Shown: positions 10,598 to 58,671 of the stretch, piece after piece
Position numbering within the stretch: position 1 is the first letter of the stretch
Layout: each line of letters begins with the position of its first letter
From: an uncultured Gammaproteobacteria bacterium
GTDB lineage: Bacteria > Patescibacteriota > Microgenomatia > Levybacterales > UBA12049
Direction of reading: 5' to 3'
Assembly: GCA_964414015.1 (NCBI GenBank)
Contig: CAYPUE010000001.1
Location: forward strand, 8,893 to 72,892
DNA length: 64,000 nt
The notes under the pieces: model-generated
Seen by the model: only the letters and a program-made list of their open reading frames with translations
Database searches by the model: none
What the model was told of the DNA's origin: nothing
Program-made: the position numbers and the translations under genes

Positions 10598-10600
10598 AAT

Positions 10601-15304: not shown

Positions 15305-16419
15305 AAATCCTTAATTATTTTCATAAAATAATTTGCAGTTTTTTGCCAATCATATTGCTTGCTTTGCTTAATTGCTCCATCTCTTAAAATCTTATATAGA
15401 TTTTTATTTTCAAAAAGCTTAACCAGATTTCTAAATAATTCTTCCGTGGTATTTTTATTACAAACTAACCCAGTTTTGTAGTTTATGGCTACTTCCGAAA
15501 GCCCAGGAGAATTATAAACAACAGCCGGAGTCCCTACCATTCCTGCCTCCGGAATAGTTAAGCCGAATCCTTCCTTAAATGATGGGGAAACCAATATGTG
15601 CGCTTTTGACATTAGCTCAAATTTCTTGTTCTCATCCACGAAGCCGAAAAAAGTAACTGCATCTTCAAGACTAAGTTTTCTGATCATGTCTCGTAAATGT
15701 TGTTCGTATTCGTTATTTCCTCTGCCAATGATCCATAACTTAACATCATTATTCCACCTTTTTAATTTAGATAGAGTAAGCAAAGCGTCTTCCGCCCCTT
15801 TAGTTTTGGCCAAACGTCCTACGAAAATTATGGTGGGATCGCTTGCTTTTTTCAAAACTTTGATATTTTTTGGCTTGCTTATCCCCATTGGCAAAACTTT
15901 TATATTTTTATGATCCACTCCGTTCTTAACCAAATCAATTTTTGTAGAATTGGAGATTGTGACAAAATTGATTTTTTTATAAACGAGCCTAAGATAAAAA
16001 ATCTCAGCAATTCTTCCGATATAACCGAAAAATCCTCCGAACATTTTTATCCAAATATCACCTGCAACTTCACAAACCAAAACGATCTTTTTCTCTTTTA
16101 CGTAAAAAGGCGTAAAGAAAGGAAGACCATGCACCTCGTCGATAACAATATCTATTCTTCCTATAAGCTTAGTTAAGTAGTAATAAAATGCTAGGAAATG
16201 AACTGACCTAAATAGATACCTTGCATCAGGATGACCCATTCTGATTACTCGAACGCCGTCTATAACTTCTTTGTTTTTACAACCAGGAAACGAGGACGAG
16301 AATAGAATTACCTTATTCCCTTTCTTAACCCATCTTTTAGCAATTTCGTGAGTTAATATTTCTGCCCCGCCCGAAGAAGGATTCTTAATATCACGCCAAT
16401 TAAATATTAATATTCTCAT
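15301..16419 (-). CDS. GT4 family glycosyltransferase
   Basis: 372 aa. MRILIFNWRDIKNPSSGGAEILTHE at the N-terminus. C-terminal EGFGLTIPEAGMVGTPAVVYNSPG (GT4 E-x7-E motif). Confidence 0.7.
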   Translation of the reverse strand: MRILIFNWRDIKNPSSGGAEILTHEIAKRWVKKGNKVILFSSSFPGCKNKEVIDGVRVIRMGHPDARYLFRSVHFLAFYYYLTKLIGRIDIVIDEVHGLPFFTPFYVKEKKIVLVCEVAGDIWIKMFGGFFGYIGRIAEIFYLRLVYKKINFVTISNSTKIDLVKNGVDHKNIKVLPMGISKPKNIKVLKKASDPTIIFVGRLAKTKGAEDALLTLSKLKRWNNDVKLWIIGRGNNEYEQHLRDMIRKLSLEDAVTFFGFVDENKKFELMSKAHILVSPSFKEGFGLTIPEAGMVGTPAVVYNSPGLSEVAINYKTGLVCNKNTTEELFRNLVKLFENKNLYKILRDGAIKQSKQYDWQKTANYFMKIIKDL

Positions 16420-17225
16420 CCTATATTAACTCTAAAATTTAATTCCGGATCGTATCTCCATTTTCTTTTATTGTTGTTATCATAATATTTTAAGATTTTC
16501 AGCCTGTAAAAAATAGCAAGCGAATCCCAAAAGGTCTTAAATAATGCCGACATTAAGCTTTGAGAAACCAAACTTTTTTTAAAATTATATTTTATTTCAA
16601 CGGGAGCCTCGAATATTTTTTTATAACCCAGATGGTAAGCTACTGCCAAAATTTCTATATCGAAAGCAAATTCCTTAACTAATAGTCTAGGGAAAACATC
16701 TTCTATAACTTTCCTTTTGAAAAATTTCATCCCAACTTGTGTATCTCGCACATTAAGACCAAAAAGTACTCTTATGAAAATTTGAGACAGAAGACTTATT
16801 ATTTTTCTACTTAAGGGATATTTAACCTTAGATGATGGATGACGCTTGCTCCCAATCATTACGTCTGCATCATGCCACTCGAACTGCTCAATCAAGATCG
16901 ATAATCCATTTGGATTAAGGTCCATTCCCGAGTCAATAAAACCAACTATATCCCCTTTCGATCTAACCATGCCATACCTAACAGCATAACCTTTCCCATG
17001 ATTATGCTCATAACCCACAACTATGACTTTATTAGAACTTGCTTTTTTTGCATTCTTAAATGTCTCATCAGCTTGACCATCTACCACAACGATAATTTCA
17101 TAATCATACCGTAATTCTTCCATGACATTTTTGATGCGCAATATATCTTCACGAATCGTTTTTTCTTGCTTGAACGCGGGAATAATAACGGATACCAAAT
17201 GTTGTCTTTTATTTTGTTTCGCCAT
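16416..17225 (-). CDS. GT2 family glycosyltransferase
   Basis: 269 aa. VSVIIPAFKQEKTI ... YEIIVVVDGQADET ... FIDSGMD (DxD-type). Confidence 0.7.
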   Translation of the reverse strand: MAKQNKRQHLVSVIIPAFKQEKTIREDILRIKNVMEELRYDYEIIVVVDGQADETFKNAKKASSNKVIVVGYEHNHGKGYAVRYGMVRSKGDIVGFIDSGMDLNPNGLSILIEQFEWHDADVMIGSKRHPSSKVKYPLSRKIISLLSQIFIRVLFGLNVRDTQVGMKFFKRKVIEDVFPRLLVKEFAFDIEILAVAYHLGYKKIFEAPVEIKYNFKKSLVSQSLMSALFKTFWDSLAIFYRLKILKYYDNNNKRKWRYDPELNFRVNIG

Positions 17226-18471
17226 AAAGCTTTAGGTAATATAGCAAAAGCAAAATCAGAAGTAAACCTGTAATGCCAAACGAAATAGCGATTATGTGAA
17301 AAAAAGTTTCGTGGAAAAACCATATTAATATTCCCTGGAGAATAGCACCAAAAAGTACAGGGATGAACACTTTTGTTTTTTTAATAGATAGGTAAAAATT
17401 AGTACATATAAAAAGCATTGAATATATAGTTATGTACATTCCAAAAAAACCAACAAGCGGAGCAGCAAAAACTGCTTCTTCTTTTTTGCTAAAAACATTT
17501 AACATGAACTCCGGAAATAAAAAATAGAAAATTGTTAAAGCTGCCGAAGCAGCAAAAACCAACAGTAAAGACAAGATAAATATTGAATGGTAACTTTCTT
17601 TTTTTGTATGTTTCTGCACAATAAGAGGAAACATAACCGTTCCAATAGGAGCCGAGAAAAAGAAAATAACTCTTCCAATTAGAGAGAGTGTCGCATACAC
17701 TCCTGCTTGCGTCGGATCAAAAAAGTGCTTTACTAATATAATGTCTGTTGAGATAAATGAAGTAAGCCCTAAAAGCGCCAATGTTGCAGGACCCGCATAT
17801 TTGAACATCGTTGCGAAATTAATAATAGTTTTTTTTTCGCTTCGATGAAGCAAAAAGGGCAAGCGCAGAAATGTTAAACCATAAGGAATCAGACCTGCGA
17901 CAAAAAATGCCAACATTGCGCCACCCACTGCAAATCCAGTAAAAACAAGCGAAACCCCAACAACAAACTTTAAAAAAGCTCCTATAAAAATTACTATTGA
18001 AAGAAAAATAAAATCCAGCTTTGCCTGAAGCAATGCTTGATTTATGACAAAAATAAAACCCGCGAAAACATTCAGCCCCACAAGAATAATTAAAAACTCA
18101 TCACTAATCCTAAAAAACTCTCCTATATTATGACTATATAAGACAAAAATGGCGAAAATTATTGCTCCAACCAGAAAAAGTATTTTGTTCATTCTTAAGA
18201 ACAATCCCCTTACTAAGGCTACATCTCCTTTAGCGAAATACGATCCTGCAAACCGAACAATTGTTGGAACAATTCCTGCCGCCGAAAAACCAAAAAGCGT
18301 AATAATCGATATAAGACTGGCCAATGCTCCATAATCGGAAAACGTAAGATTCCTGCTCATGAAAATGTTAAAAAGAAAATTAAATATATTTGCTGATAAT
18401 GAACCAAGAAAAACTATTATGCTTCCTGAAATAAGGGGGTGTTCTATAACCTGACGGATTTTTTTTCTCAT
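17209..18471 (-). CDS. Wzx/MOP-superfamily polysaccharide (oligosaccharide-lipid) flippase
   Basis: 420 aa. About 12 TM helices. N-terminal pattern LISGSIIVFLGSLSANIFNFLFNIFMSRNLTFSDYG is typical of PST/Wzx family transporters. Confidence 0.6.
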   Translation of the reverse strand: MRKKIRQVIEHPLISGSIIVFLGSLSANIFNFLFNIFMSRNLTFSDYGALASLISIITLFGFSAAGIVPTIVRFAGSYFAKGDVALVRGLFLRMNKILFLVGAIIFAIFVLYSHNIGEFFRISDEFLIILVGLNVFAGFIFVINQALLQAKLDFIFLSIVIFIGAFLKFVVGVSLVFTGFAVGGAMLAFFVAGLIPYGLTFLRLPFLLHRSEKKTIINFATMFKYAGPATLALLGLTSFISTDIILVKHFFDPTQAGVYATLSLIGRVIFFFSAPIGTVMFPLIVQKHTKKESYHSIFILSLLLVFAASAALTIFYFLFPEFMLNVFSKKEEAVFAAPLVGFFGMYITIYSMLFICTNFYLSIKKTKVFIPVLFGAILQGILIWFFHETFFHIIAISFGITGLLLILLLLYYLKLYGETK

Positions 18472-19025
18472 AGAGCTTTTCGCACGCTATCCCACGAGAA
18501 CAAGGATCCATCAGTAAGCTTTACTTGAGCTTCTTCGTAGGAAATTCTGCCTTCCTCTTTTGGGTTGTAAAGCGCAGTTGGAAAATTAAGAAGGATAGCT
18601 GGCTCTTTCGAGACCACCATAAAACCATGAAGGGTTTTTTTGGGAATCAATAGAACGTAGGGATTATCATCAGCTTTCATATTGAAAAGGTTTAGTAATC
18701 CAAAAGTTGGAGAATCTTCACGATTATCTGCTATGGCCACAACTATTGATCCCTGGATAACCAAAAATCTGTCTTCCTGCACTGTAGGATGATAATGCCA
18801 GACTTTTTCATCCCTTGCGATTCCGCTTGGAGTAATAGAGTAATACTGCATTGCAAACTCTTTACTCTTACCGTAAATATCAGGCCAGTCTGTCCTAAGG
18901 GTCTCAACCAATATTCCCGATTTATCCCTATTAATTTTTAAAGGATGCATAATAACATCCTTTACAAGCGTAAAATTGTTTTTATTTGAAATGTTAATAA
19001 ACTCCATTACAAGATATGATATCAA
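18468..19025 (-). CDS. Cupin-fold NDP-sugar epimerase/isomerase (RmlC/dTDP-4-dehydrorhamnose 3,5-epimerase-like)
   Basis: 185 aa. DEKVWHYHPTVQEDRFLVIQGSIVVAIADNREDSPTFG matches the RmlC-family core (R/HxH..Q..k.v.v..G.v.dV.vD.R..SpTfG). Confidence 0.5.
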   Translation of the reverse strand: MISYLVMEFINISNKNNFTLVKDVIMHPLKINRDKSGILVETLRTDWPDIYGKSKEFAMQYYSITPSGIARDEKVWHYHPTVQEDRFLVIQGSIVVAIADNREDSPTFGLLNLFNMKADDNPYVLLIPKKTLHGFMVVSKEPAILLNFPTALYNPKEEGRISYEEAQVKLTDGSLFSWDSVRKAL

Positions 19026-20092
19026 ATTGTCGTATCTATTGCTATCTTTTTATATACATTAAATGTTTCTTCTGCAGTTTTTTTCCAAGAGAATTTTTTT
19101 GCCTGAATTAAACCTTTTTTAGAATATTCTTCCCTAAGCTTTTTGTTTTCGTACATTGTCCTAATGCCTTCGCCAATACTGTCAGGATCGTAAGCATTAA
19201 CATAGAAAACCGTATTGCTTGCAATTTCCGGTATTGACCCCTCTTTCGTAGTAACTACCGGACAACCGCAACTCATTGCCTCAAGAATCGGAAGACCAAA
19301 TCCTTCGTATAGAGAGGGCATTACAAAAACTGTAGCTAAATTGTAAATCATAACCAAATCGCTAGTAGGTATAAATCCTAAACGTAGAATATTTTTATCT
19401 TTTTCTACCAACTTCTCTACTCTAGTGCGATCTTGATTCCATAAATTATCTTTGTCAAAATCAAAATTCGTAAGAGCTTTTCCAACCATAACAAGAGGCA
19501 CCTTAATCCTCTTAACCGCTTCTATTAACCTTGGTAAATTTTTATTCCAAGTTACATCTCCCACATAGAGCAAAAAATTCTCCGGAAGGGAATATTTTTT
19601 GCTAATTTTTAATTTTAAATTTTCAATTTTCAATCGCTTGAACGCCTCGCCCGCGGCTAAGTAGATAACGTGAATTTTGCGTTCCGGAATCCCAACGTAT
19701 TTAACAATGTCTTTTTTCGAAGAAAAAGAATCAGTTATTACTGCATCTGCGCTGCTCAAGGCGGCTTTTTGCAATTGCCATTTTAGCTCTCCTTTTATGC
19801 CTCTTGGAAAAAATTTCGGAAAAGCTAAAGGCGTTAAGTCATGAACTGTCACTATTGTTTTATATTTTTTGTAAATTGGCAGTGTTAGAAAAAACGGCTC
19901 AAAATAAGGATAATGGACTAAATCCGTATCTTTGGGTAAATTTTCACCTCGAGTAAAAAAAGTATACTGATTGTCCGGATAATATTGCAATAAGGATTTT
20001 TTAAGATTTTCTATATAAAATCCTGTACCCCGAACTCTATGTGCAAGATTACGAGCGTCAATCAGCGGGGATACATCAACAGCTATGTTCAT
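19022..20092 (-). CDS. GT4 family glycosyltransferase
   Basis: 356 aa. C-terminal half FVMPSLYEGFGLPILEAMSCGCPVVTT is the canonical GT4 motif. Confidence 0.75.
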   Translation of the reverse strand: MNIAVDVSPLIDARNLAHRVRGTGFYIENLKKSLLQYYPDNQYTFFTRGENLPKDTDLVHYPYFEPFFLTLPIYKKYKTIVTVHDLTPLAFPKFFPRGIKGELKWQLQKAALSSADAVITDSFSSKKDIVKYVGIPERKIHVIYLAAGEAFKRLKIENLKLKISKKYSLPENFLLYVGDVTWNKNLPRLIEAVKRIKVPLVMVGKALTNFDFDKDNLWNQDRTRVEKLVEKDKNILRLGFIPTSDLVMIYNLATVFVMPSLYEGFGLPILEAMSCGCPVVTTKEGSIPEIASNTVFYVNAYDPDSIGEGIRTMYENKKLREEYSKKGLIQAKKFSWKKTAEETFNVYKKIAIDTTI

Positions 20093-20119: not shown

Positions 20120-21025
20120 TTAAGCAAAATTGCTTTTTTGCGCAATAATTCCTATGTTGCCCCCGAATAGGGGAATAGCAAAATCAAAAAAGCTTAGCTT
20201 ACTAAAGCTATCGTGCAATATGTTTTTAATTCCCTTAGGTAAAGGGGCCATTTTTGCATAATAAGATAGGGGGTAAGTATTTTTCACATTAAATATCTCA
20301 ATATTTTTAAATTTATGTTTTGAGAACAATAAGCTTAGTGTATGTTTGTTAAAAAGATATATATGCTCTATATCGAATATTGGCCATTTTTCTCCAAAAA
20401 GTTTTACAAATATATTGTCCGTATTGTGTACGGCAAAAAGAATAAATCCTCCAGGTTTAAGAATCCCTCGCGCTAATTTGATAAATCTATTCGGATCTAC
20501 TACATGATCTAGTGTATGGAAACATAAAACAGCATCAAAATTATTATCCGGAAATTGTTTTTGCTTAAAAATATCTGTAGTAATCCTCTTTTTAAGATAC
20601 GGCGGTGCCTCGGAAACCATTTTCAAACTTGCTTCTACTCCAAACAAATCTTTTATCCCCTTTTTCTTTAATGCTTCAAGAAAAAATCCGTTTCCGCACC
20701 CGATCTCTAAAATTTTTGGATTTTGGGATAAAAAAGGTTCTATCCGCTGAAATTCTTTCATATACGCCTTAGTAAGATAAGGAACCTGCTTGTCGTAACT
20801 GCAAACGCTTTCTCTATAAAATTCTGTTATTTTTGAAGGCTCAAGGATAGGAGATGAGAAAATTAATCCGCACTTCTGGCATTTAAGTATTCTATAATGA
20901 ATTCTGTCTGGAGATCTGCGTGCCGAGTAGGTAATGCTCGTTATATTTCTTTTGTTGAACGTAGATTTGTATAAAACTTCTGTACGTTGATTTTTACCGC
21001 ACAATGCACATATAATATCAACCAT
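20120..21025 (-). CDS. Class I SAM-dependent methyltransferase with N-terminal zinc-ribbon
   Basis: 301 aa. CALCGKN...CQKCGLIF Cys4 ribbon. SAM motif I ILEIGCGNGFFLEAL. Acidic motif II AVLCFHTLDHV. Confidence 0.7.
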   Translation of the reverse strand: MVDIICALCGKNQRTEVLYKSTFNKRNITSITYSARRSPDRIHYRILKCQKCGLIFSSPILEPSKITEFYRESVCSYDKQVPYLTKAYMKEFQRIEPFLSQNPKILEIGCGNGFFLEALKKKGIKDLFGVEASLKMVSEAPPYLKKRITTDIFKQKQFPDNNFDAVLCFHTLDHVVDPNRFIKLARGILKPGGFILFAVHNTDNIFVKLFGEKWPIFDIEHIYLFNKHTLSLLFSKHKFKNIEIFNVKNTYPLSYYAKMAPLPKGIKNILHDSFSKLSFFDFAIPLFGGNIGIIAQKSNFA

Positions 21026-21971
21026 GAAAAGTATTATAACAAATAAAACGGTTCTTATTACGGGAGGAGCTGGTTTTATAGGATCAAACTTGACTAGGCG
21101 GCTTTTGAAAATGGGTTATAGTATTAATCTTATCGTAAAAAAAAATACAGATCTTTGGAGATTAAAAGACATAGTTTCTAAAATTAGAATACATAAAGTA
21201 GATCTTCTTGATAGCCTGAAACTTTCCCAAACAGTAAGCAAAATTAAACCGGAAATAATAATTCATCTGGCAACATATAGTAATTACAGAGATCAACGGG
21301 CAATAAAACAAATGATTGACCTTAACATCCAAGGAACTTTTAATCTTCTTCTGGCAAGTAAAGATATTAATTATGATATTTTTATAAATACAGGCTCCTC
21401 TTCTGAATACGGATTAAAAAGCAAACCGATGAAAGAAAATGATTTATTAGAACCTGTAAGCTTTTATGCTGCTACAAAGGCATCCGCTACGCTTTTGTGC
21501 CAGGTATTTGCAAAAGAATTTAAGAAGCCGATCGTAACTTTTAGACCGTTCTCTGTTTATGGACCTTATGAAGAAAAAAGTAGATTTATGCCAACCATCG
21601 TCAAAGCCCTCATCAAAGGCAAATCAATAAATCTTACCCCCGGAAAACAACGCAGGGATTTTATCTATATAGACGATGTCGTTGATATATACATAAAAGC
21701 TATGAGGACTAGAAAAAATCTTGCAGGACAAATCCTAAATATCGGAACAGGGAAGCAGTATTCCAATGATGAAACGGTAAAAATTCTTTTCAAAGCAGTT
21801 GGGCAAAAAGTTTCAGTCAAAAAAGGCGCTTTCCCTAAACGGTTATGGGACACGCCTTATTGGGTAGCTGACATCTCCAAGACAACTAAATTGCTTAAAT
21901 GGAAACCCCGATTTGGCTTAAAGGAAGGATTGAGAAAAACTTATTTTTGGGCTAAAAATGAAAAAATTTAA
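21024..21971 (+). CDS. NAD-dependent NDP-sugar epimerase/dehydratase (extended SDR)
   Basis: 315 aa. VLITGGAGFIGSNLTRRLLKMGY, catalytic YAATKAS (YxxxK), GSSSEYG. Confidence 0.75.
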   Translation: MKSIITNKTVLITGGAGFIGSNLTRRLLKMGYSINLIVKKNTDLWRLKDIVSKIRIHKVDLLDSLKLSQTVSKIKPEIIIHLATYSNYRDQRAIKQMIDLNIQGTFNLLLASKDINYDIFINTGSSSEYGLKSKPMKENDLLEPVSFYAATKASATLLCQVFAKEFKKPIVTFRPFSVYGPYEEKSRFMPTIVKALIKGKSINLTPGKQRRDFIYIDDVVDIYIKAMRTRKNLAGQILNIGTGKQYSNDETVKILFKAVGQKVSVKKGAFPKRLWDTPYWVADISKTTKLLKWKPRFGLKEGLRKTYFWAKNEKI

Positions 21972-22692
21972 TATAAAATTATTAGACTGGGATCAAAAAA
22001 ATACAAGACGCAGAATTATTGAGATAAGCTATGGCAAAGGCTTGTCTCATTTAGGATCTTGTCTGTCTGTTGTAGATATTATCGATATAATTTATAAAAT
22101 AAAACATAAGGATGATAAATTTGTCTTATCTAATGGCCATGCAGGAATTGCTTTGTATGCAATACTTGAAAAGAATAAACTTATTAAAAATCCTAAAACT
22201 TCGGAAAAACTACACATCCATCCCGACAGAAATCCGAAAATCGGGATAGATGTTTCCACAGGCAGCCTTGGACAAGGCCTGCCTATAGCCTTGGGATTAG
22301 CTTTTTCCAACCGGCAGAAGAATGTTTATTGCATAATTTCGGATGGGGAATGCACAGAAGGCAGTATATGGGAATCTTTAAGAATTGCAATTGATTATAG
22401 AATAGGGAATTTAAAAATCATTGTAAATGCAAATGGATGGGGAGCTTATGGATCAATTTCAACGAAAATCTTGCTTAAAAGGTTAAAAGCTTTTGGTTGC
22501 ATGGCAATAACCGTAGACGGACACAATAAAACTGATCTTCTTAAAACTTTAAAAAGGAAATCAATAAATAAACCGATTATAATATTTGCAAAAACCGAGG
22601 TTGAACAATTTGAATTCCTTAAAGGACAAGATGCTCATTATTACAAAATGAACAAAAACGACTATAATAATGCTCTTAAAGCATTGCAATGA
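21958..22692 (+). CDS. Transketolase, N-terminal (ThDP-binding PP) subunit
   Basis: 244 aa. GHAGIALYAILEKNKLI, GSLGQGLPIALGLAF, IISDGECTEGSIWES are characteristic of split transketolase subunit A. Confidence 0.7.
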   Translation: MKKFNIKLLDWDQKNTRRRIIEISYGKGLSHLGSCLSVVDIIDIIYKIKHKDDKFVLSNGHAGIALYAILEKNKLIKNPKTSEKLHIHPDRNPKIGIDVSTGSLGQGLPIALGLAFSNRQKNVYCIISDGECTEGSIWESLRIAIDYRIGNLKIIVNANGWGAYGSISTKILLKRLKAFGCMAITVDGHNKTDLLKTLKRKSINKPIIIFAKTEVEQFEFLKGQDAHYYKMNKNDYNNALKALQ

Positions 22693-23189
22693 AAAAACAA
22701 AATTCTCTAATGATGCGAGCTATTTTCGCGCAAGAAATACGCAAAAAAATGGCAAAAAACAAAAAGGTCTTCGTACTTGTAAATGACCTTGGATATAAAA
22801 TGTGGGATAAGATAAGAAAAGATTACCCTGAAAGATTTATCAATGCAGGAGCTGCGGAACAATCCCTAATAGGAATTGCCGTGGGACTTGCTATTTCTGG
22901 TAAAATACCCATTGTATATTCAATAACAACATTTCTTTTATATAGACCATTTGAAACAATAAGAAACTATATAAATCATGAAAAGATACCTGTTAAACTA
23001 ATAGGGAGCGGCAGAAATAAAGACTATATTAACGACGGGTTCTCTCACTGGGCAGAAGAAGACAAAAAAGTAATGAAAGTTTTTGGGAATATAATATCAA
23101 AATGGCCAAAAACTTTACAAGAAATTCCCAAGCTGGTTAGCCAAATGACAGAAAGTAAAGACCCGTGGTATATTAATTTAAGAAAATAA
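22689..23189 (+). CDS. Transketolase C-terminal-section subunit, truncated to the pyrimidine-binding domain
   Basis: 166 aa. MRAIFAQEIRKKM...VLVNDLGYKM...FINAGAAEQSLIGIAVGLAISGKIPIVYSITTFLLYRPFETIRN matches the transketolase Pyr domain. The usual C-terminal domain is absent. Confidence 0.6.
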   Translation: MKKQNSLMMRAIFAQEIRKKMAKNKKVFVLVNDLGYKMWDKIRKDYPERFINAGAAEQSLIGIAVGLAISGKIPIVYSITTFLLYRPFETIRNYINHEKIPVKLIGSGRNKDYINDGFSHWAEEDKKVMKVFGNIISKWPKTLQEIPKLVSQMTESKDPWYINLRK

Positions 23190-23192
23190 AAT

Positions 23193-23223
23193 TATGACCC
23201 TGAGTATTAATCGAAGGGTCATA
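23193..23223 (+). terminator. Hairpin (9-bp stem tatgaccct/agggtcata, 13-nt loop) in the 51-bp spacer between the transketolase subunit and the GT2 gene
   Basis: Perfect inverted repeat read directly from the sequence. Followed by the T-containing tract ctgagtttatcg. May be a weak intrinsic terminator/attenuator or a protein-binding site. Confidence 0.3.
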
Positions 23224-23240
23224 CTGAGTTTATCGAATGT

Positions 23241-24182
23241 ATGAAAAAGAAAATATCTGCAATTATCGCCTGCTATAAAGATGAACAGGCAATTCCTATT
23301 ATGCATAAAAGGCTATCTTTTGTATTCACAAAAATAGGAGTGGATTACGAAATAATTTTCGTAAATGATGGTAGTCCGGATAATACAGAAAAAGCGCTAA
23401 GTCTACTGGTAAAAAAAGATAAACACGTAATTGGGGTAAATCACTCAAGAAATTTCAGCTCTCAAATGGCATTTACAAGCGGTATGGAGATTGCAACCGG
23501 GGATGCGGTTGTCCTTCTTGACGGAGATTTACAAGATCCTCCCGAAATTATAGAAAAATTTTATAAAAAATGGCAGGAAGGATATGACGTTGTGTATGGC
23601 GTAAGAACGAAAAGAGACGCGCCTCTTTATATGGCAATTTTATATAAGTTGTTCTACAGGATATTTCATATGATGTCTTACATTCGTATTCCTCTTGACG
23701 CCGGAGATTTCTCCCTGATCGATAAAAAAGTGGTAAAGATAATTAAAACGTTTCCTGAAAGAGACAGATTTCTAAGAGGGATACGCGCATGGGTGGGATT
23801 TAAACAGATAGGCGTTCCTTATGTGCGTCCCGAAAGAATGTTTGGAAAAACTACCAATAACCTATTTAAAAATCTTAATTGGGCATCAAAAGGAATTTTT
23901 TCTTTTTCCTATGTACCTCTACAAATTATAACTCTTGTCTCGTTCGTTGTTTTTATTATCGCTCTTGTCGCAATGATGGTACAAATAATTTTAAGATTTT
24001 TACTGCCAAATACGCCTCAAGGAGCAACTACTATTCTCGTTATCTTCTTATTCATCGGCGCAATTCAACTTCTGGGAATTAGTGTTCTTGGGCAATATAT
24101 AGGTAAGATATTTGAAGAAGTAAAACAAAGACCAAAATATATTATAAAAAGTATTGTTAAGTATAATTCGAAACAGATCTGA
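23241..24182 (+). CDS. GtrB/DPM1/ArnC-like polyprenyl-phosphate hexose synthase (GT2 with C-terminal 2-TM anchor)
   Basis: 313 aa. ISAIIACYKDEQAIP, YEIIFVNDGSPDNT, DGDLQDPPE (DxD). C-terminal hydrophobic helices (LQIITLVSFVVFIIALVAMMV, TTILVIFLFIGAIQLLGISVLG) and QYIGKIFEE, as in GtrB/DPM1. Confidence 0.75.
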   Translation: MKKKISAIIACYKDEQAIPIMHKRLSFVFTKIGVDYEIIFVNDGSPDNTEKALSLLVKKDKHVIGVNHSRNFSSQMAFTSGMEIATGDAVVLLDGDLQDPPEIIEKFYKKWQEGYDVVYGVRTKRDAPLYMAILYKLFYRIFHMMSYIRIPLDAGDFSLIDKKVVKIIKTFPERDRFLRGIRAWVGFKQIGVPYVRPERMFGKTTNNLFKNLNWASKGIFSFSYVPLQIITLVSFVVFIIALVAMMVQIILRFLLPNTPQGATTILVIFLFIGAIQLLGISVLGQYIGKIFEEVKQRPKYIIKSIVKYNSKQI

Positions 24183-24183
24183 T

Positions 24184-25818
24184 TTATTGGTTTTTAACCA
24201 AAAGACTTTTGATTAATAAAAACAAACTTAATAATATAAAAATAAAGGATGAAATTGTACCAATCGTCCTTGGGCTCGTAGCTCCTAACTCTATTTTTAT
24301 ATCATGATTTCCTGCATTAAGATGGAAAGAAAAAAGCCCATTAGGAGTTACATTTATCTTAACTTTTTTGCCATCTACAAATACTGACCATCCTGGAAAA
24401 TATGCTGTATTTACTCCAATTTCCGAATCATCCTTAGCTTCGATCTTAAAATCATAAAAACTGCTAATAATTCTTTTGGGTGTTATAACGCCATCTCCTT
24501 TTAGAAAAAATGCTTTATCTTTTTGTTTCTTTAAATCTCCATTAAAAAATATTGTATTGAATGCATTTCCCGGGCTATTGGTTCCATCTATAAAATTCGA
24601 TCGCGTTATGTAGTAAGAATCTTCTCTATAAAGGTAGTAAGCTGGTTTTGAATATTCAATCCCCAAAAGAAAAGTAAAAGTAATCATAATGATTGCCAAA
24701 ACCCATGACTTCCAATAAAAAATAATACTCCCTGCCAGAAATGAAGTGATTAATATAACAAGACTTAAGAGTCTCCATGGAAACTGAAAATAATTTACAA
24801 GCGGAATATTAACCCAAATCGGATAGGAAATTTTTTGCATTAAAAATAAAAGAATTAGAAGGGATATTATAAAAAAGAAAATTATCCTGCATTCTGTTTT
24901 TTTCTTTATAAAAAATATACAACCTACACAAAAACTTATAAATGTTGCGAAAATATTAGCTATCCCTATTTGGACAGACATCTCCGTAGCTATATTGGTT
25001 CCAAAAAATCCGGATCCCCATGAAGGAATAATTAATTGATATAAATCCGGAAAATTAACATTCAAACTGAAAACTTCCAATCCAACGACATATTGCCTCT
25101 CAAATAGAGCAGGTATCCAAAAAATTGAAGATAATCCAAGACTAATTAGTATTACGTAGAAAGTATTAAGTATTAAGTATCTGCGATTATTGCTTATGCA
25201 TATTAGAAAAATAATGTAAGAAATAGAAAAAGCAAAAAACATTAAAGCTAAGATATTATGAGAAAATATAATTAACGCCAAAAATATACTTGAAATTGCA
25301 ATATATTTACTTTGTCTTTCTTTAAAGAATTTCGTAATCGACCAGAGAAAAGCCGGAAAAAAAGCAAGAGCCCACACCTCTCCCACAGAACCCCTAATGT
25401 ATGCATCCACGAAATGGTAAGGCGAAAATGAATAAAATACTGAAGATACTATGCCTCCTAATGTACCCCAAAATTCTTTGCTCCAAAGATAAAAAAATAC
25501 TCCGCCGATTATGAAGGCTAAGAACATCTCAAGCTTAAAAGAGTCTATGAAGCTTATACCAAAAATGTGAAAAAAGGAAGCGATGTAGTTTGGTAAGGGA
25601 TAAACGTAGTTAAAAAGCGGCACCCCATATCCATTATTTAAGTCCGGAGCCCAACGGGGATACCAATTGCCATCTCTTAGAACCTTATCGAATTCATAAA
25701 ATCTTACAATATGGTATTCTCCATCATGCGTAGGAGATAATCCCTTATGGATAAGTGAAAAACCAGCAATAATGGAAAATATAATAACTAAAAGTATTGG
25801 AAGAAATTTTTTCGCCAT
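24184..25818 (-). CDS. Polytopic membrane protein of the HDG-PRW-GYGYP family (YfhO-related GT-C-like) with C-terminal YFPGW beta-domain plus TM anchor
   Basis: 544 aa. N-terminal loop SPTHDGEYHIVRF...NWYPRWAPDLNNGYGVPLFNYVYPLPNY. More than 10 TM. C-terminus NTAYFPGWSVFVDGKKV...AGNHDIKIE then a terminal TM helix. Paralogs at 29242, 55651, 57144, 62826. Confidence 0.55.
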   Translation of the reverse strand: MAKKFLPILLVIIFSIIAGFSLIHKGLSPTHDGEYHIVRFYEFDKVLRDGNWYPRWAPDLNNGYGVPLFNYVYPLPNYIASFFHIFGISFIDSFKLEMFLAFIIGGVFFYLWSKEFWGTLGGIVSSVFYSFSPYHFVDAYIRGSVGEVWALAFFPAFLWSITKFFKERQSKYIAISSIFLALIIFSHNILALMFFAFSISYIIFLICISNNRRYLILNTFYVILISLGLSSIFWIPALFERQYVVGLEVFSLNVNFPDLYQLIIPSWGSGFFGTNIATEMSVQIGIANIFATFISFCVGCIFFIKKKTECRIIFFFIISLLILLFLMQKISYPIWVNIPLVNYFQFPWRLLSLVILITSFLAGSIIFYWKSWVLAIIMITFTFLLGIEYSKPAYYLYREDSYYITRSNFIDGTNSPGNAFNTIFFNGDLKKQKDKAFFLKGDGVITPKRIISSFYDFKIEAKDDSEIGVNTAYFPGWSVFVDGKKVKINVTPNGLFSFHLNAGNHDIKIELGATSPRTIGTISSFIFILLSLFLLIKSLLVKNQ

Positions 25819-26930
25819 AATTTTTCTTTTATGGATAAGTACAAAAGAGCCGCAATGGATGGAATAAAGGTTACCAAAGCTTTAATCAAAGGCGTAGGTC
25901 CGAAATAAGTACCAAGAAGCATGAATGGAATATAACGTAATAATAAACCAAAAGAGCAGGAGATGGAAAGATATAATAAAATTTTATTTTTTGGAACAAG
26001 AAATGAAAATGGAAGAAACCATATGGCATACCATGGGTAAATTTCTTCCCTAATTGGCGACAGTAAAAACGCCATTATCATTAATATTGCCGAATAAGAA
26101 AATACATTGTCCCAATTAATCTCCATTTTCCTTACTCTCCTTATGACAACATATATAAAAATAGGAAGTAAAAATAAAGTTGCATATTTTATAAGCATAG
26201 ATAATATTATAAAAATAATTGCCCAAAATATTCTCTTTTTCATTAATAAATAAAAAGCCAAGAGCGCAAAAAACATCATAACTATATCATTATGTCCGCT
26301 AATTAAAGTTTCTATAATTACTAAAGGATTTAGAACGAATAGCAGAAGAGTAGCAAAATTTTTTGATATTTTCCAAATGATAGATATTGTACCTAGATAA
26401 AAAAGGAGTATAAAAAGTTTAAAATTTAAAAGCGTTAGCAGAAAATTCCCAAAACCCAATACATAAGGTATTCCTGTTAATAATATCCAAACCGGACCGT
26501 ATAAAGCGGTTTTATTAGCAGCGTGCATAAAGAAAAGTAATGGATCTTTTGTAAACTCAATAGGCATAATTATATAAGGGTTTTCGTGGTAAAAAAATAA
26601 AACCTTTGAAGTTGCAACATAGTTAAAAATATCATAGGAAAGCATTGCTGGATAAGACAGAAGTAATAATGCAATTGTAAGAATTAAGTATAATTTAAGA
26701 TCTTTAAAACCAAATAATCCCATTTTGCTTAATCTAACTATCAAAAAATAAAATATAAAAAATATTAAAATGAGCAATATATATAAAACGGTTGTTAATT
26801 GGCGGTTACTAAAAGCAAAACCAGAATAAAGCCTATGAAGATATAAAAAATTTGGGTCTATAAATAAATATGAGAAAATTAAAAAACAAAATAAAAAAAA
26901 CGCATAAAGAAAGATAAAAACGGATTTCAT
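25788..26930 (-). CDS. Integral membrane protein (about 11 TM), putative GT-C-like glycosyltransferase
   Basis: 380 aa, highly hydrophobic throughout. Sits in a glycosylation context. No specific family assigned. Confidence 0.35.
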   Translation of the reverse strand: MKSVFIFLYAFFLFCFLIFSYLFIDPNFLYLHRLYSGFAFSNRQLTTVLYILLILIFFIFYFLIVRLSKMGLFGFKDLKLYLILTIALLLLSYPAMLSYDIFNYVATSKVLFFYHENPYIIMPIEFTKDPLLFFMHAANKTALYGPVWILLTGIPYVLGFGNFLLTLLNFKLFILLFYLGTISIIWKISKNFATLLLFVLNPLVIIETLISGHNDIVMMFFALLAFYLLMKKRIFWAIIFIILSMLIKYATLFLLPIFIYVVIRRVRKMEINWDNVFSYSAILMIMAFLLSPIREEIYPWYAIWFLPFSFLVPKNKILLYLSISCSFGLLLRYIPFMLLGTYFGPTPLIKALVTFIPSIAALLYLSIKEKLWRKNFFQYF

Positions 26931-29241: not shown

Positions 29242-30894
29242 CTAGGAAAGCTTTGGTTTTACAAACTTAAAAACCAAAAGAGAAACGGTAACAAAAAGCG
29301 CAGCGAAAGAAATAATGTCTGATATCAATCTTAGCTTAGTTTCTTTATATTCTGCTTCAACCAGATAATTTCCTTTAGTTAAGTTAAAAGTCATAATCCC
29401 TCTATACTGCATATTCTGAAATTCTAGATAAAGAGGCTTTCCATTTGCTTTTATTTCCCAGCCTGGAAAATACAGGGTATTTTCTCCAAACAGAGCATTC
29501 TTATTAACTTGTACTTGATATTTATGATAAGTTGATTTCCTATCAAGTTCTTTTATTTTTGCGTCTCCGTCAATTACTTCAAGGTATGCTTTTGGCCTTT
29601 TTTCCATAAATCTTACAGACCATATGGGAGCGCTCTCCCCTGTATCCGTAGTGCTATCGTAGATGCCGCTATAAAAACTCTCTTCTTTTTGCAAAAATCC
29701 ATTTGCATGCCAATAATCTTTATTTACAAATAATAGAACTGCAACAAATATTAATAACGCTGCCTTTTTATATTTACTTGAAACTACGGATAATAAAATT
29801 CCTCCCATCAATGCGCTTAAAAAGACTGTAACGGAAAGAAACCTCCAGGGAAACTGAAACTTTTGAAGAGTTGTAATTGTCTGCCAAATTGGATTGGAAG
29901 AAGAGGTCATTAGGAATAGTGTTGCCCAAAAAATAATAAAGCTTCCCAAACATATAATCCATAGCTTATTTCTTTTTTTATATAAATAATACGCTGCAAT
30001 AATACTACCAACTACACCTATCCAGTGAATAATTCCTATTTGCTTGCTAAGAGCTATTGTCCCTCCATAACTCCATGGTGAAAGGAAAAAATCCTTCCAC
30101 GCTACAAAACTCCTTGTGTATTCCCCTCCTCCCGTAACAATGTCCCTAAGGGTATACTTTCCTTCTATCAATGCTGGTATCCAGAAGAAAGCGGATAACC
30201 CAAACCCAAGAAGTATTAAGTAAAAAGAGTTAAGTATAAAGTATTTTTTATTGGAGTACTGAAAAATTAGATAAAAAATGTATATCAGTATCAAGGGCAG
30301 AAACATAAGTGTTATTGCATTATGAGACAGGATAAGACCGGCCAATGAAAGCGATCCTCCCAATATCTGCCAATAGGAAAAATTTTTCGCAAGTTTAGTC
30401 AGGAAATAAAAGATAAGGGGCGGGAAAATAAATGCAACATGCTCACCAATAGCCCCACGGACATATAAATCAACAAATCTATAGGGAGCAATTATATAAA
30501 GCGCGCTTGCAAAAAATGCTGCTTTATCATCATTTAGTAATTCTTTAATAAAAAGGTACATTACTAGACCGCTTAGAACAAATGATGTACCAAAAACCAA
30601 CTTTACACTATCAACTAATGTAAATCCAAAAAAATGAAATAATGAAGCTAAATATGAGGGTAAAGGATAAAGAAATTCCAATATGGGGTGCCCGTATCCC
30701 CAGTTAAGATTACCCGCCCACCTTGGAATAATATTTCCTTCTTTTAGATTTTGATAAAAATTGGCAATTCTTGCAACATGATCTTGTCCATCATGAGTAA
30801 TCGGCAATCCCGAATAGAAAAAATCCAAAAGAGGAATAACTGATAATATGGTGAGTAAAAATAAAATTACTAATTTAGATTTAAAAATTTTCAC
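29242..30894 (-). CDS. HDG-PRW-GYGYP family polytopic membrane protein (YfhO-related GT-C-like) with C-terminal YFPGW domain
   Basis: 550 aa. PITHDGQDHVARI...NIIPRWAGNLNWGYGHPILEFLYPLPSY. C-terminus NTLYFPGWEIKANGKPL...KGNYLVEAEY plus a terminal TM. Confidence 0.55.
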   Translation of the reverse strand: MKIFKSKLVILFLLTILSVIPLLDFFYSGLPITHDGQDHVARIANFYQNLKEGNIIPRWAGNLNWGYGHPILEFLYPLPSYLASLFHFFGFTLVDSVKLVFGTSFVLSGLVMYLFIKELLNDDKAAFFASALYIIAPYRFVDLYVRGAIGEHVAFIFPPLIFYFLTKLAKNFSYWQILGGSLSLAGLILSHNAITLMFLPLILIYIFYLIFQYSNKKYFILNSFYLILLGFGLSAFFWIPALIEGKYTLRDIVTGGGEYTRSFVAWKDFFLSPWSYGGTIALSKQIGIIHWIGVVGSIIAAYYLYKKRNKLWIICLGSFIIFWATLFLMTSSSNPIWQTITTLQKFQFPWRFLSVTVFLSALMGGILLSVVSSKYKKAALLIFVAVLLFVNKDYWHANGFLQKEESFYSGIYDSTTDTGESAPIWSVRFMEKRPKAYLEVIDGDAKIKELDRKSTYHKYQVQVNKNALFGENTLYFPGWEIKANGKPLYLEFQNMQYRGIMTFNLTKGNYLVEAEYKETKLRLISDIISFAALFVTVSLLVFKFVKPKLS

Positions 30895-30902
30895 ATTTTA
30901 TA

Positions 30903-32567
30903 TTATAGTCCATTAACAACTCTTATTCCTGTTTCATTATTTAAATATCTGCCGATAAAAAGAGTTTTTATATTCCGTGGAAAATCATCGGGATTACCAA
31001 CATAAAGCGTTGTTTTGTTCTTCTGTTCTTTGCTCCAATTTATCGGCCTAAACTCAAATTTGGAAAATGCGTGCTCTTCTGCAAATCCTCCTGATTTTGT
31101 CCCGCCCTGCATCTGATAAACAGACGAGTCATACTTAGAATAGAAAAGGAAAAACATATACGACTGGTATAAATTATCTTTGTTGGAAAAAATAATTTTA
31201 TCGTAGGCATTTTGATTCTTTACGACGAAAGGGATAGTTTTGGATAAAGCATATTGAAAAGACTGCGATTGATTTTTGGAAAAAACAAAAAAATATTGCT
31301 GATAAAAATATCGTAATGATAAAATACCAACAATAAACAGTAAAAGGTAAAAAATAGATAAAATGTAAGCTTTAAATCTCACCTTTGCGATAAATTGGAC
31401 AGTAGCAAAAATTCCTAAAGAGGAAAGTATCTGCGGAACAGGCAATGTGTTGTATGCACGCATAGCATGTGGGGCCCCTGTAGTTAAAGAAGGAGCAACG
31501 AAAGAAGCAGTAAGCCATAGTATAATAATAGTCTTAATCTTTTTATCAAACTTCCCCAAAAGCAAAAAAATTACTCCTAAGAGCATAAAAGGGAACTCCC
31601 ACCAGTATAAAAGTCCTATTCCCGGAGCCTTAAAGCTTTCATTGCCGCTATTGCCAAAAATAAACTGTGGGTTTAGATGAGAGAAATAATTCCCAAGAAA
31701 TATTCTAATTGGAACTAAACGTCTGTTGTAAAAAATCTCTCCAACGATATTGCCTTCTTTTTTATATTGCAATACTTTATCAGCACTAATCCCATATGCC
31801 TTACTATTGTTAAATGCTGATGTGCCCTTAAAACGTAAAAGCCCTTGAGGAGTTAAAGTAACTAAAAATATTGGCAAAATAAATAAAATCCCTAAAATTA
31901 ATGATGTAAATACTTTTTGTTTCATTTTTAAAAAATGTTTTCTGAAGATATATAAAAAAACAAGTAAAATTAACGGGGCAAATATTTTTTCACTTTGATA
32001 AGTATAAAAAGATAATCCGAAAAATAAAGTTGAGATTAATAAGAAAAATTTATTTGGGGGATTATTGATTGCTTTGAGCAGGAATAAAACGGCAAGGACA
32101 ACAGAGGTCAAACCTGCATTTACCTCATGTCCAAGCCGTGAAATATAAATGTGCCACGGGGAAATTGCCAGAAGAAACGAAGAAAGCATAGCGATTGTTT
32201 CATTGCTAAATTGTTTAATTGTTGAATTCTTGAATAGCTCTTTTACCAAAAAATATGTAGATACAACTGTTAAAACTGACAGTATAACCGAAGGCAAACG
32301 AACTGCCAGCACATTAAGGCCAAATAGCTTTATAAATGGAATTACCAAATACACATATAAAGCAGGTCGCCAATCATCGTATGCACGAAGAAGTATTGGA
32401 AATTTCGTCCCATATTCATCAGCGCCCGTCTTTAAAATAGAATAAGCATTATAGCCAATCGATGCTTCATCAAGTGAAGCGGTGGGCGGAACATTGGTTA
32501 ATTGATAAAACCGTAAAAAAATCGCTAATAAAATAATTCCTAAAAAAATAATTTTCTTGCTATTCAT
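30903..32567 (-). CDS. PMT_2/ArnT-like GT-C glycosyltransferase (paralog 1 of 5)
   Basis: 554 aa. First loop LDEASIGYNAYSILKTGADEYG (GT-C DE motif). SPWHIYISR motif. More than 11 TM. About 55% identical N-terminal region to 32568..34196. Confidence 0.65.
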   Translation of the reverse strand: MNSKKIIFLGIILLAIFLRFYQLTNVPPTASLDEASIGYNAYSILKTGADEYGTKFPILLRAYDDWRPALYVYLVIPFIKLFGLNVLAVRLPSVILSVLTVVSTYFLVKELFKNSTIKQFSNETIAMLSSFLLAISPWHIYISRLGHEVNAGLTSVVLAVLFLLKAINNPPNKFFLLISTLFFGLSFYTYQSEKIFAPLILLVFLYIFRKHFLKMKQKVFTSLILGILFILPIFLVTLTPQGLLRFKGTSAFNNSKAYGISADKVLQYKKEGNIVGEIFYNRRLVPIRIFLGNYFSHLNPQFIFGNSGNESFKAPGIGLLYWWEFPFMLLGVIFLLLGKFDKKIKTIIILWLTASFVAPSLTTGAPHAMRAYNTLPVPQILSSLGIFATVQFIAKVRFKAYILSIFYLLLFIVGILSLRYFYQQYFFVFSKNQSQSFQYALSKTIPFVVKNQNAYDKIIFSNKDNLYQSYMFFLFYSKYDSSVYQMQGGTKSGGFAEEHAFSKFEFRPINWSKEQKNKTTLYVGNPDDFPRNIKTLFIGRYLNNETGIRVVNGL

Positions 32568-35833: not shown

Positions 35834-35874
35834 TATTAATTATAACGCAAAATGTATATACTATACCAGTAAGT

Positions 35875-37419: not shown

Positions 37420-37440
37420 CTAAATAAAAAAAGGCAAACA

Positions 37441-48256: not shown

Positions 48257-48298
48257 GTATCCATTCTATCAATTTCCATCCCCCTTGCAAATGCCATA

Positions 48299-58664: not shown

Positions 58665-58671
58665 TTAAATT

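Follow-up and report, generated by a model that had tools for sequence, protein, structure and literature searches.

Genes of the rfbF, rfbG and rfbH type make cytidine diphosphate (CDP)-4-keto-6-deoxy-glucose and CDP-4-keto-3,6-dideoxy-glucose. The second of these compounds is acted on by YerE, a thiamine diphosphate (ThDP) enzyme that adds the two-carbon branch of yersiniose, after which the reductase YerF acts (PMC12247030). ThDP-dependent sugar branching is established for enzymes of the YerE type and the E1 type, whereas for transketolases it is a proposal only (PMC12247030). Here we describe a split transketolase-like gene pair in the 64-kb stretch of contig CAYPUE010000001.1 that was analysed as a whole (assembly GCA_964414015.1, positions 8,893 to 72,892; hereafter the window). 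One gene encodes a ThDP diphosphate-binding (PP) subunit and the other a subunit that consists of the Pyr domain only. Judged from the encoded proteins and their setting, the pair is most likely a functional minimal two-domain ThDP enzyme of a cell-surface glycan pathway rather than an enzyme of the pentose phosphate pathway.

Architecture and conservation of the gene pair

The PP-chain and Pyr-chain genes lie next to one another, as in split-gene transketolases, and overlap by 4 nucleotides (nt). The PP gene also overlaps, by 14 nt, an upstream gene for a short-chain dehydrogenase/reductase (SDR), and a 51-nt spacer separates the Pyr gene from a downstream gene for a family 2 glycosyltransferase (GT2; Table 1). 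In Pfam searches, the PP protein matched PF00456 at 54.5 bits (cut-off 22) and the Pyr protein matched PF02779 at 55.2 bits (cut-off 27) over profile positions 3-167 of 174, but no match to PF02780, the transketolase C-terminal domain, was obtained on the Pyr protein. On the 627 positions of the NCBIfam transketolase model NF004559, the PP protein aligned at 23-279 and the Pyr protein at 315-473. The Pyr domain of the Carboxydothermus hydrogenoformans C subunit (ChTK-C) comprises residues 1-162 (PMC7661550), and the window Pyr protein therefore stops precisely at the border between the Pyr and C-terminal domains. A tblastn search with the C-terminal domains of three full-length relatives found no such domain elsewhere in the 64-kb window, and a search that also included two full PP chains found no second transketolase there, the only matches being the two open reading frames (ORFs) themselves.

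The PP chain is ∼30-60 amino acids (aa) shorter than other split N subunits. Its AlphaFold model (predicted local distance difference test score, pLDDT, 90) superimposed on the C. hydrogenoformans N subunit ChTK-N (6yak_A) with a template modelling (TM) score of 0.87, and its family profile scored 212 bits against ChTK-N (6yak) and 175 bits against human transketolase. The model of the Pyr chain (pLDDT 78) gave a TM score of 0.85 to 6yaj, covering only the Pyr half of that chain. By analogy with 6yak, an α2β2 assembly of PP and Pyr chains is predicted.

The positions of the ORFs and their neighbours, an SDR gene before and a GT2 gene after, match exactly those given by an earlier, sequence-only reading of the window. 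Its assignment of a split transketolase with a ThDP subunit and a Pyr-domain-only subunit is borne out by PF00456 and PF02779, and its statement that the C subunit lacks the usual C-terminal domain agrees with both the missing PF02780 match and the end at the domain border. A nearby ORF for a C-terminal domain or a frameshifted full-length tkt gene, which that reading had named as signs of a remnant, was looked for, and neither was found in the window.

Both chains belong to large families of uniform size. A word-indexed protein search returned 2427 homologues of the Pyr chain, the best 120 of which are all 146-168 aa long (all but one 158-168 aa), and 4074 homologues of the PP chain, the best 120 being 237-257 aa long. 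An exhaustive profile search of 1.84 billion cluster representatives gave 6860 matches. Pyr-only chains of 150-180 aa account for ∼45 of the ∼50 best-scoring 50%-identity clusters; the highest-scoring chains of ∼300 aa lie at ∼137 bits and this length prevails below ∼125 bits, and no gene fusions were present among the 150 best representatives. A phage collection contained distant matches of 26-30% identity, in unannotated records. Comparison with the orthologues in locus L006, which are 81-88% identical, gave dN/dS values of 0.147 (PP chain), 0.091 (Pyr chain) and 0.145 (SDR). We conclude that the pair is genuine and that purifying selection acts on it.

With respect to expression signals, a promoter and terminator scan returned sites no more numerous than in shuffled sequence. 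The spacer between the Pyr and GT2 genes contains, at 23194-23229, an inverted repeat, ATGACCC (N15) GGGTCAT, each arm of which is followed by a direct repeat, CTGAGT; as there is no T-run, it is not a typical terminator. Upstream, the start codons of the SDR gene and of a divergent methyltransferase gene overlap in the tetranucleotide CATG at 21023-21026, so that either each promoter lies inside the other gene or one of the starts is mis-called.

Cofactor and substrate sites

Residues were assigned by aligning family profiles to solved transketolases. In the PP chain H31, H61, H88, the GSLG motif at 102-105, D129, E134, N159 and H227 are invariant, corresponding to human H37, H77, H110, D155, N185 and H258; the GDG...N motif that binds ThDP and metal is represented by the invariant D129-G130 and N159. 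In the Pyr chain the cofactor-activating glutamate is E57, the counterpart of human E366 and ChTK-C E55 in the alignment; the AAEQ motif around it is invariant. All donor-site histidines are likewise invariant, with H31, H61, H88, H227 and H120 equivalent to yeast H30, H69, H103, H263 and H481, respectively. H88 is equivalent to E. coli H100, which governs the preference for hydroxypyruvate over pyruvate and is replaced by Phe in pyruvate-using DXPS, the synthase of 1-deoxy-D-xylulose 5-phosphate (PMC7661550). By its retained residues, the enzyme thus looks adapted to a donor that is a hydroxylated ketol.

The substrate-phosphate site (yeast R359, S386, H469 and R528) is not kept as a whole. 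R10, equivalent to yeast R359 and human R318, and a basic residue at 165/166, equivalent to yeast R528, are retained. In all members the phosphate-binding histidine (yeast H469, human H416) has given way to Gly108, next to which most of the short family have Arg109, and the phosphate-site serine (yeast S386) is replaced by Lys or Gly. The aspartate (yeast D477, E. coli D469) by which the C2-hydroxyl of the acceptor is read is strict in housekeeping enzymes, whereas its column is variable in the family (D, H, Q, L, A or M); the window protein itself has Asp116.

A common signature unites the short family with ∼300-aa chains encoded in glycan clusters: Gly108, Gly35-Tyr/Phe36 and Tyr113, with strict conservation of Asp116 lost in both. 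Housekeeping enzymes have His at 108, Ser-Lys at 35-36 (Lys-Asn in human transketolase), Val or Ile at 113 and Asp at 116, and the His and Asp are kept in C. hydrogenoformans transketolase, human transketolase and locus L070. In a crude neighbour-joining tree without support values, the short family is nested in a clade of ∼300-aa split C subunits, with the C. hydrogenoformans enzyme, L070 and human transketolase outside. By these alignments the active site is derived relative to that of housekeeping transketolases.

Gene neighbourhoods of the pair

A scan of one genome per species yielded 67 loci, whose ORFs were labelled by BLAST against the window proteins. Counts of neighbours refer to the 43 species-level loci with at least 4 kb on both sides, "near" meaning within 4 kb of the transketolase pair. 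The PP gene is adjacent to the Pyr gene in 42 of the 43. A GtrB-like GT2 gene is near the pair in 34 loci and a methyltransferase gene in 30, the latter in several gene orders. The extended SDR is near in 30 loci and a classical 255-aa SDR (adh_short) in 7, so that one or the other is present in 37. The complete set of components was found in 28 of the 43 loci, and this recurrent set (zinc-ribbon methyltransferase, SDR, PP, Pyr and GtrB-like GT2; hereafter the module) occurs in at least four different gene orders and in several phyla. Of the module, the GT2 shows the highest conservation, with 70-89% identity in the majority of loci and ∼50-55% where the SDR is classical. The 67 loci belong mostly to Patescibacteria of the Microgenomates type; the others are from Omnitrophota, Ratteibacteria, Elusimicrobia, Sedimentisphaerales, Eisenbacteria, Bryobacteraceae and Cloacimonas-like bins.

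Inspection of the extended SDR reveals a motif, S126-S127-E128-Y129-G130 with Y148 and K152, that is at least 95% conserved in 48 orthologues. The best matches in the Protein Data Bank are the UDP-glucuronic acid 4-epimerase 6zl6 and MoeE5, and the Asp-Glu pair of RmlB-type 4,6-dehydratases is absent. A 4,6-dehydratase that makes the keto sugar was rejected as the leading view of this protein, given the missing Asp-Glu pair and the epimerases among its best structural relatives; a keto-sugar-making role is also at odds with archaeal locus L080, which encodes a bona fide CDP-glucose 4,6-dehydratase in addition to the orthologue (37% identity). The sequence-only reading had taken the upstream protein for an epimerase or dehydratase: the SDR fold holds, but the keto-sugar-making role probably does not, in view of the coexistence in L080 and of the classical SDR that replaces it in some loci. 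The SDR is probably an NAD(P)H-dependent reductase partner of the transketolase. A role as branch ketoreductase, like that of YerF, fits it better than an epimerase or dehydratase role because it is translationally coupled to the PP chain, is fused to a PP domain in Paenibacillus, coexists with a separate 4,6-dehydratase in L080 and is interchangeable with a classical SDR. Window-type SDR orthologues also adjoin full-length transketolase pairs, in L073 (48% identity), L080 (37%) and L068 (37%). At the position of Glu128, just before Tyr-Gly in the SSxEYG motif, glutamate is invariant within the SDR family, whereas epimerases carry Val or Leu; glutamate is also present in the fused Paenibacillus SDR (AEYG).

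The methyltransferase, transcribed divergently from the SDR gene, carries an N-terminal zinc ribbon, and its residues C6, C9, C49, R36-R37, P39-D40 and H43 are invariant. It was also considered as a TcaB9/TylC3-type C-methyltransferase: its best structural relatives are generic (3cc8 and UbiG), its profile scored 43 bits against the sugar C-methyltransferase TcaB9 and 66 bits against a generic methyltransferase, and Pfam gave no match to PF08421 or PF08484 on it.

Scores of the GT2 were 250 bits with Synechocystis GtrB (5ekp), 240 bits with the PgfS model and 142 bits with ArnC, and its C-terminal part contains three hydrophobic segments, within residues 219-278. The adjoining GT-C protein, related to YfhO/PTPS, scored 27.7 bits against PF09586, just under the cut-off of 28.5, and gave weak matches to PgfM1 and PgfM2. 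Its homologues are adjacent in L001, L003-L008, L010 and L064, YfhO/PTPS-related GT-C genes being frequent neighbours of the module in general, and it is probably the user of the polyprenyl-phosphate sugar. PF26314 was matched by the L003 homologue of the second GT-C protein.

Full-length relatives of the pair, with C subunits of ∼300 aa, occur in glycan clusters that offer a view of possible substrates. In Nostoc sp. the pair is preceded, in this order, by a cytidylyltransferase for glucose-1-phosphate (above cut-off, at 362 bits), an SDR resembling CDP-glucose 4,6-dehydratase, RfbH (752 bits) and a further SDR; L081 has the same enzymes together with an aminotransferase-acetyltransferase, a GT2 and Wzx. 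The Thermoplasmatota archaeon of L080 encodes a cytidylyltransferase, the window-type SDR, the pair and the CDP-glucose 4,6-dehydratase (463 bits), and L073 combines its SDR with the pair and RfbH. On the plasmid NZ_CP054609.1 of Paenibacillus cellulosilyticus KACC 14175 (L083), rfbF, rfbG and a methyltransferase gene are followed by an SDR::TK-PP fusion and a 308-aa C subunit, and then by genes for a TylF-like O-methyltransferase, a glycosyltransferase and a GT2/GtrA fusion. The fused protein (L083 7097-9004, WP_110042955.1; 635 aa) comprises an SDR at residues 17-358 and a transketolase PP domain at 375-628. It is annotated only as "SDR family oxidoreductase", and its SDR part is distant from the window SDR (22% identity, 81 bits); the 308-aa C subunit has the same derived active-site signature. 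In the wps-2 exopolysaccharide cluster of Actinoplanes missouriensis the order is methyltransferase, N subunit, C subunit and DegT (PMC13390465). Among short-family loci, a cytidylyltransferase and a 4,6-dehydratase-like gene lie beside the module in L024, L025 and L037, and an RfbH homologue in L028. By gene content, the contexts of the relatives point to CDP-4-keto-deoxyhexose substrates.

Table 1. Coordinates of the transketolase-like pair and of other features in the window
Feature	Position	Strand	Length (aa)	Matches and remarks
TylC3/TcaB9-type nucleoside diphosphate (NDP)-hexose C-methyltransferase	2-1258	+		PF08421 zinc domain, PF13489, PF08484 C-terminal domain; cut by window start
PglF/CapD-type membrane-associated 4,6-dehydratase	9545-12007	-		PF02719 371 bits; adjoins DegT aminotransferase
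GT2	16416-17225	-		accompanies module in closest relatives
Wzx-type flippase	17209-18471	-		accompanies module in closest relatives
RmlC-like cupin	18468-19025	-	185	PF00908 59 bits; TIGR01221 48.8 bits (below cut-off)
GT4	19022-20092	-		Pfam; accompanies module in closest relatives
Class I S-adenosylmethionine (SAM) methyltransferase with N-terminal CxxC...CxxC zinc ribbon	20120-21025	-	301	PF13489 88.5 bits; divergent from SDR gene
Extended SDR	21024-21971	+	315	PF01370 171 bits (Pfam)
PP subunit, transketolase-like	21958-22692	+	244	PF00456
Pyr subunit, transketolase-like, Pyr domain only	22689-23189	+	166	PF02779
GtrB-type polyprenyl-phosphate glycosyltransferase (GT2)	23241-24182	+	313	PF00535
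YfhO/PTPS-related GT-C membrane glycosyltransferase	24184-25818	-	544	PF10131 55 bits
MptA/B-like GT-C mannosyltransferase-family membrane protein	25788-26930	-	380	TIGR03459 38 bits, weak; 11 hydrophobic segments

The window as a whole is a glycan island, with ten GT2 genes, eight YfhO/PTPS-related GT-C paralogues (the gene next to the module is one of these) and seven of the PMT_2 type, in stretches such as 24184-25818, 29242-39108, 44907-50883 and 55651-63986. Because at least 15 GT-C transferases are encoded in it, many of the transferases would need lipid-linked sugar donors. The block of GT2, Wzx, cupin and GT4 genes at 16416-20092 is syntenic with the module in its closest relatives (L003-L006, L017 and L024), as is the RmlC-like cupin in particular. 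The RmlC family acts on NDP-4-keto-6-deoxyhexoses. The TylC3/TcaB9-type C-methyltransferase at the window start is a second enzyme that needs an NDP-4-keto sugar, and the PglF-like dehydratase forms with DegT a bacillosamine-like amino-sugar pair, which also has a 4-keto-6-deoxy intermediate.

Several further genes recur beside the pair. B12-binding radical SAM genes were found in L025, L035, L052 and L057, and in L036 between the PP and Pyr genes; on p5 of Azospirillum argentinense Az39 (L084) the genes flanking the pair encode a methyltransferase and two cobalamin or radical-SAM proteins. These neighbours hint at further C-methylation on the same sugar. A 421-aa flavin adenine dinucleotide (FAD)-dependent oxidoreductase of the amine-oxidase type (PRK07233 family, 419 bits) lies directly 3' of the module (for example at 7451-8716 of L005), mostly in Levybacteria-type loci; it follows the GtrB gene in L003-L005 and L022, and the Pyr gene in L024, which is without GtrB. 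Loci from TPA metagenome bins titled "uncultured Gammaproteobacteria" or "Pseudomonadales" (L010, L014, L022, L027, L028, L030, L034, L046, L048 and others) are syntenic with, and 59-68% identical to, Patescibacteria loci; the taxonomic labels of these bins are probably unreliable.

Proposed pathway and comparison with known systems

The proposal that the pair is a dedicated glycan-pathway carboligase with a keto or aldehydo sugar as its substrate, coupled both to a reductase and to GtrB, is in our estimate about evenly balanced between true and false; its most likely single version is that in which the branch is formed at C4. The sequence-only reading had likewise seen a dedicated sugar-pathway transketolase for a branched or extended sugar, for which the module, the signature shared with the relatives and the Paenibacillus fusion provide support. 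We infer the chemistry, that is the donor, the acceptor, the branch position, the order of steps and the nucleotide carrier, as follows. Glu57 of the Pyr subunit would activate ThDP, which would take a two-carbon ketol (dihydroxyethyl) unit from a hydroxylated donor such as a ketose phosphate or hydroxypyruvate. The resulting carbanion would attack the C4 carbonyl of an NDP-4-keto-6-deoxy- or 3,6-dideoxy-hexose made by enzymes encoded elsewhere, giving a 4-C-hydroxyacetyl tertiary alcohol, so that the enzyme would be a transketolase-family counterpart of YerE. The co-translated SDR would then reduce the branch carbonyl, as YerF does, the zinc-ribbon methyltransferase would methylate the reduced branched sugar, and the GtrB-type GT2 would transfer the finished sugar to polyprenyl phosphate. 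After flipping, one of the neighbouring YfhO/PTPS-related GT-C proteins may move the sugar to a surface polymer or protein. Genes of NDP-4-keto-sugar chemistry in the window are those for the RmlC-like cupin, the TylC3-type C-methyltransferase and the PglF-like dehydratase with its DegT aminotransferase.

A number of observations weigh against this scheme. CDP-sugar genes adjoin the module in only ∼5 of the 43 short-family loci, 9 of the 43 have no GtrB gene nearby, and the sugar-1-phosphate cytidylyltransferase, CDP-glucose 4,6-dehydratase and RfbH are all absent from the 64-kb window. Characterised GtrB-type enzymes use uridine diphosphate (UDP)-sugars, not CDP-sugars. Two of the four canonical phosphate-binding residues (R10 and the basic residue at 165/166) are kept, together with Asp116 in the window protein, so a sugar phosphate may still be a substrate, and the tree that nests the short family among the glycan-cluster chains is, as noted, crude. 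A ketone or keto-sugar acceptor has never been demonstrated for any transketolase (PMC12247030), and the literature searched held no biochemical data on members of the clade, only proposals and unannotated mentions. In the same vein, the sequence-only reading's statement that such pairs are associated with ketol transfer was too strong: transfer has been proposed, for miharamycin and amipurimycin, and never shown in vitro (PMC12247030).

Among the other explanations considered, chain extension is unlikely. Here the ketol unit would be added to an aldehyde, namely a C6-aldehydo dialdose, NDP- or lipid-linked, produced by the SDR, to yield a C2-extended sugar such as an octulose. In its favour, every known acceptor of a transketolase is an aldehyde (PMC7661550, PMC12247030), the histidines on the donor side are fully canonical, and an SDR able in principle to oxidise a primary alcohol is always nearby. 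However, the relatives adjoin enzymes of 4-keto-sugar formation (4,6-dehydratase and RfbH) rather than 6-oxidising ones, and the Asp that reads the α-hydroxyl of aldose acceptors is not conserved in the family.

No better than unlikely, too, is modification at the lipid level, in which GtrB would first make an ordinary polyprenyl-phosphate hexose, and the SDR, transketolase and methyltransferase would remodel the sugar on its carrier. DprE1 and DprE2 remodel decaprenyl-phosphate ribose in a comparable manner. Consistent with such a route, GtrB is the most conserved gene of the module and resembles a standard UDP-glucose enzyme, the module has no nucleotidyltransferase, and the classical SDR that replaces the extended one in 7 loci is of the DprE2 size class. 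Set against it are the full-length clade members, which occur in NDP-sugar enzyme clusters without GtrB, the 9 short-family loci that lack it, and the soluble module proteins, for which no hydrophobic segments are listed and hence no membrane anchor is seen.

Decarboxylase chemistry with acetyl-type branching, in which pyruvate would serve as donor as in DXPS, YerE and the E1-like AviB and AlmD and a hydroxyethyl or acetyl unit would be transferred, is a very unlikely alternative. Proven sugar-branching ThDP enzymes all use 2-keto acids (PMC12247030), DXPS and E1 models give weaker matches in Pfam and NCBIfam, and several members are named "DXP synthase N-terminal domain-containing protein" by NCBI. 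Nevertheless, transketolase models scored 146 bits against 32 bits for DXPS models, the invariant His88 (E. coli His100) is Phe in DXPS (PMC7661550), and invariance extends to His31 and His227, two residues that in transketolases bind the C1-hydroxyl of the donor.

We regard as highly improbable a streamlined pentose phosphate transketolase of a reduced genome that lies in the glycan island by chance. Candidate-phyla genomes are in general small and often carry split transketolases, and cofactor residues, donor residues and two phosphate-binding residues are kept, but the same module is present in Omnitrophota, Elusimicrobia, Sedimentisphaerales, Ratteibacteria and Bryobacteraceae, the pair is tightly coupled to SDR, methyltransferase and GT2 genes, and the SDR::TK-PP fusion exists in Paenibacillus. 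Moreover, the phosphate His has become Gly in every member and the stereo-determining Asp is variable, whereas both residues are kept in the C. hydrogenoformans and human enzymes. Finally, a decayed tkt remnant, which the half-length C subunit might have suggested, is refuted and retains next to no probability, and a frameshifted full-length tkt is ruled out along with it, given the two lengths that recur in thousands of homologues, purifying selection (dN/dS ∼0.1), a cut exactly at the domain border (PMC7661550) and the absence of any C-domain fragment from the window by tblastn.

If the favoured C4-branching scheme is right, the enzyme would be the first natural transketolase to form tertiary alcohols from ketones, on a compact scaffold of ∼410 aa per protomer; transketolase access to such products is actively sought in biocatalysis (PMC12247030). 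An as yet unknown branched sugar would be predicted on the surface of uncultured, host-dependent bacteria with little-studied envelopes, and the transketolase C-terminal domain appears to be dispensable in a large natural family. More tentatively, the pair may represent a widespread, hitherto unrecognised class of "mini-transketolase" (244-aa PP plus 166-aa Pyr) that transfers a ketol unit onto a keto sugar to give a new C-branched, methylated, polyprenyl-phosphate-delivered envelope sugar in candidate-phyla bacteria, Omnitrophota and others, with the same role for full-length cousins in Nostoc, Paenibacillus, Actinoplanes and archaea; this broader claim is somewhat more doubtful than credible. 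Cultured, tractable carriers of the full-length version are P. cellulosilyticus KACC 14175, Nostoc and A. missouriensis.

Of the described systems, YerE/YerF of yersiniose A in Yersinia pseudotuberculosis pairs a ThDP enzyme with a reductase acting on CDP-4-keto-3,6-dideoxyhexose, the roles proposed here, and relatives of the window pair share its rfbF/rfbG/rfbH gene context. Unlike the window enzyme, YerE is a single chain of the decarboxylase (acetolactate-synthase-like) ThDP superfamily with pyruvate as donor (PMC12247030); the window enzyme, a two-chain member of the transketolase family, retains those residues that serve a donor of the hydroxylated ketol kind. It also differs in having no adjacent CDP-sugar genes and in a product that appears destined for a GtrB enzyme. 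The miharamycin and amipurimycin clusters and 13 other Streptomyces clusters similarly contain split transketolases among sugar-modifying genes, with a keto sugar as the proposed recipient of a hydroxyacetyl unit (PMC12247030). These belong to secondary-metabolite clusters and are known from a proposal only (PMC12247030), their likeness to the window pair being one of description; the window family, by contrast, is found in surface-glycan loci from uncultured phyla, has no C-terminal domain and shows coupling to GtrB.

The split transketolase of C. hydrogenoformans (6yak/6yaj), an α2β2 assembly of separate PP and Pyr chains, is the best match in both structure and sequence. In contrast to the window protein, ChTK-C has a C-terminal domain (residues 164-312) and the canonical substrate-site His and Asp (PMC7661550), and ChTK-N is longer than the window PP chain, the crystallised 6yak_AAA having 309 residues including the His-tag. 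The split transketolases of P. cellulosilyticus and Nostoc share the derived signature and have methyltransferase, sugar-nucleotide and SDR genes beside the pair. In A. missouriensis wps-2 (AMIS_56700-56720), methyltransferase and sugar-nucleotide genes also lie by the pair (PMC13390465), a link of gene context only. All three differ from the window pair in having a full-length C subunit, and in Paenibacillus the SDR is in addition fused to the PP domain.

Three-component glycosylation of the GtrB/PgfS type relies on a GT2 that makes a polyprenyl-phosphate sugar, a flippase and a GT-C protein, and the window resembles it in that a YfhO-like GT-C gene adjoins the one for the GtrB-like GT2; a Wzx gene lies at 17209-18471. 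Known systems of this type load an ordinary UDP-sugar; in the window, by contrast, genes for a ThDP enzyme, an SDR and a methyltransferase are linked to that of the GT2. Sulfopyruvate and phosphonopyruvate decarboxylases (ComDE and Ppd) are also ThDP enzymes that consist of Pyr and PP domains only, sometimes as two small chains. They are of a different ThDP superfamily, with the opposite domain order and decarboxylase chemistry, and the match to the sulfopyruvate decarboxylase β subunit was weak (22 bits). Relative to these systems, three features are new. The first is that split transketolases from glycan loci form, as aligned here, a large clade in which an altered substrate site is shared; the second, on the same alignments, is that a two-domain form which has lost the C-terminal domain is widespread within this clade; and the third is that this two-domain form is tied to a methyltransferase, an SDR and a lipid-sugar synthase of the GtrB type.

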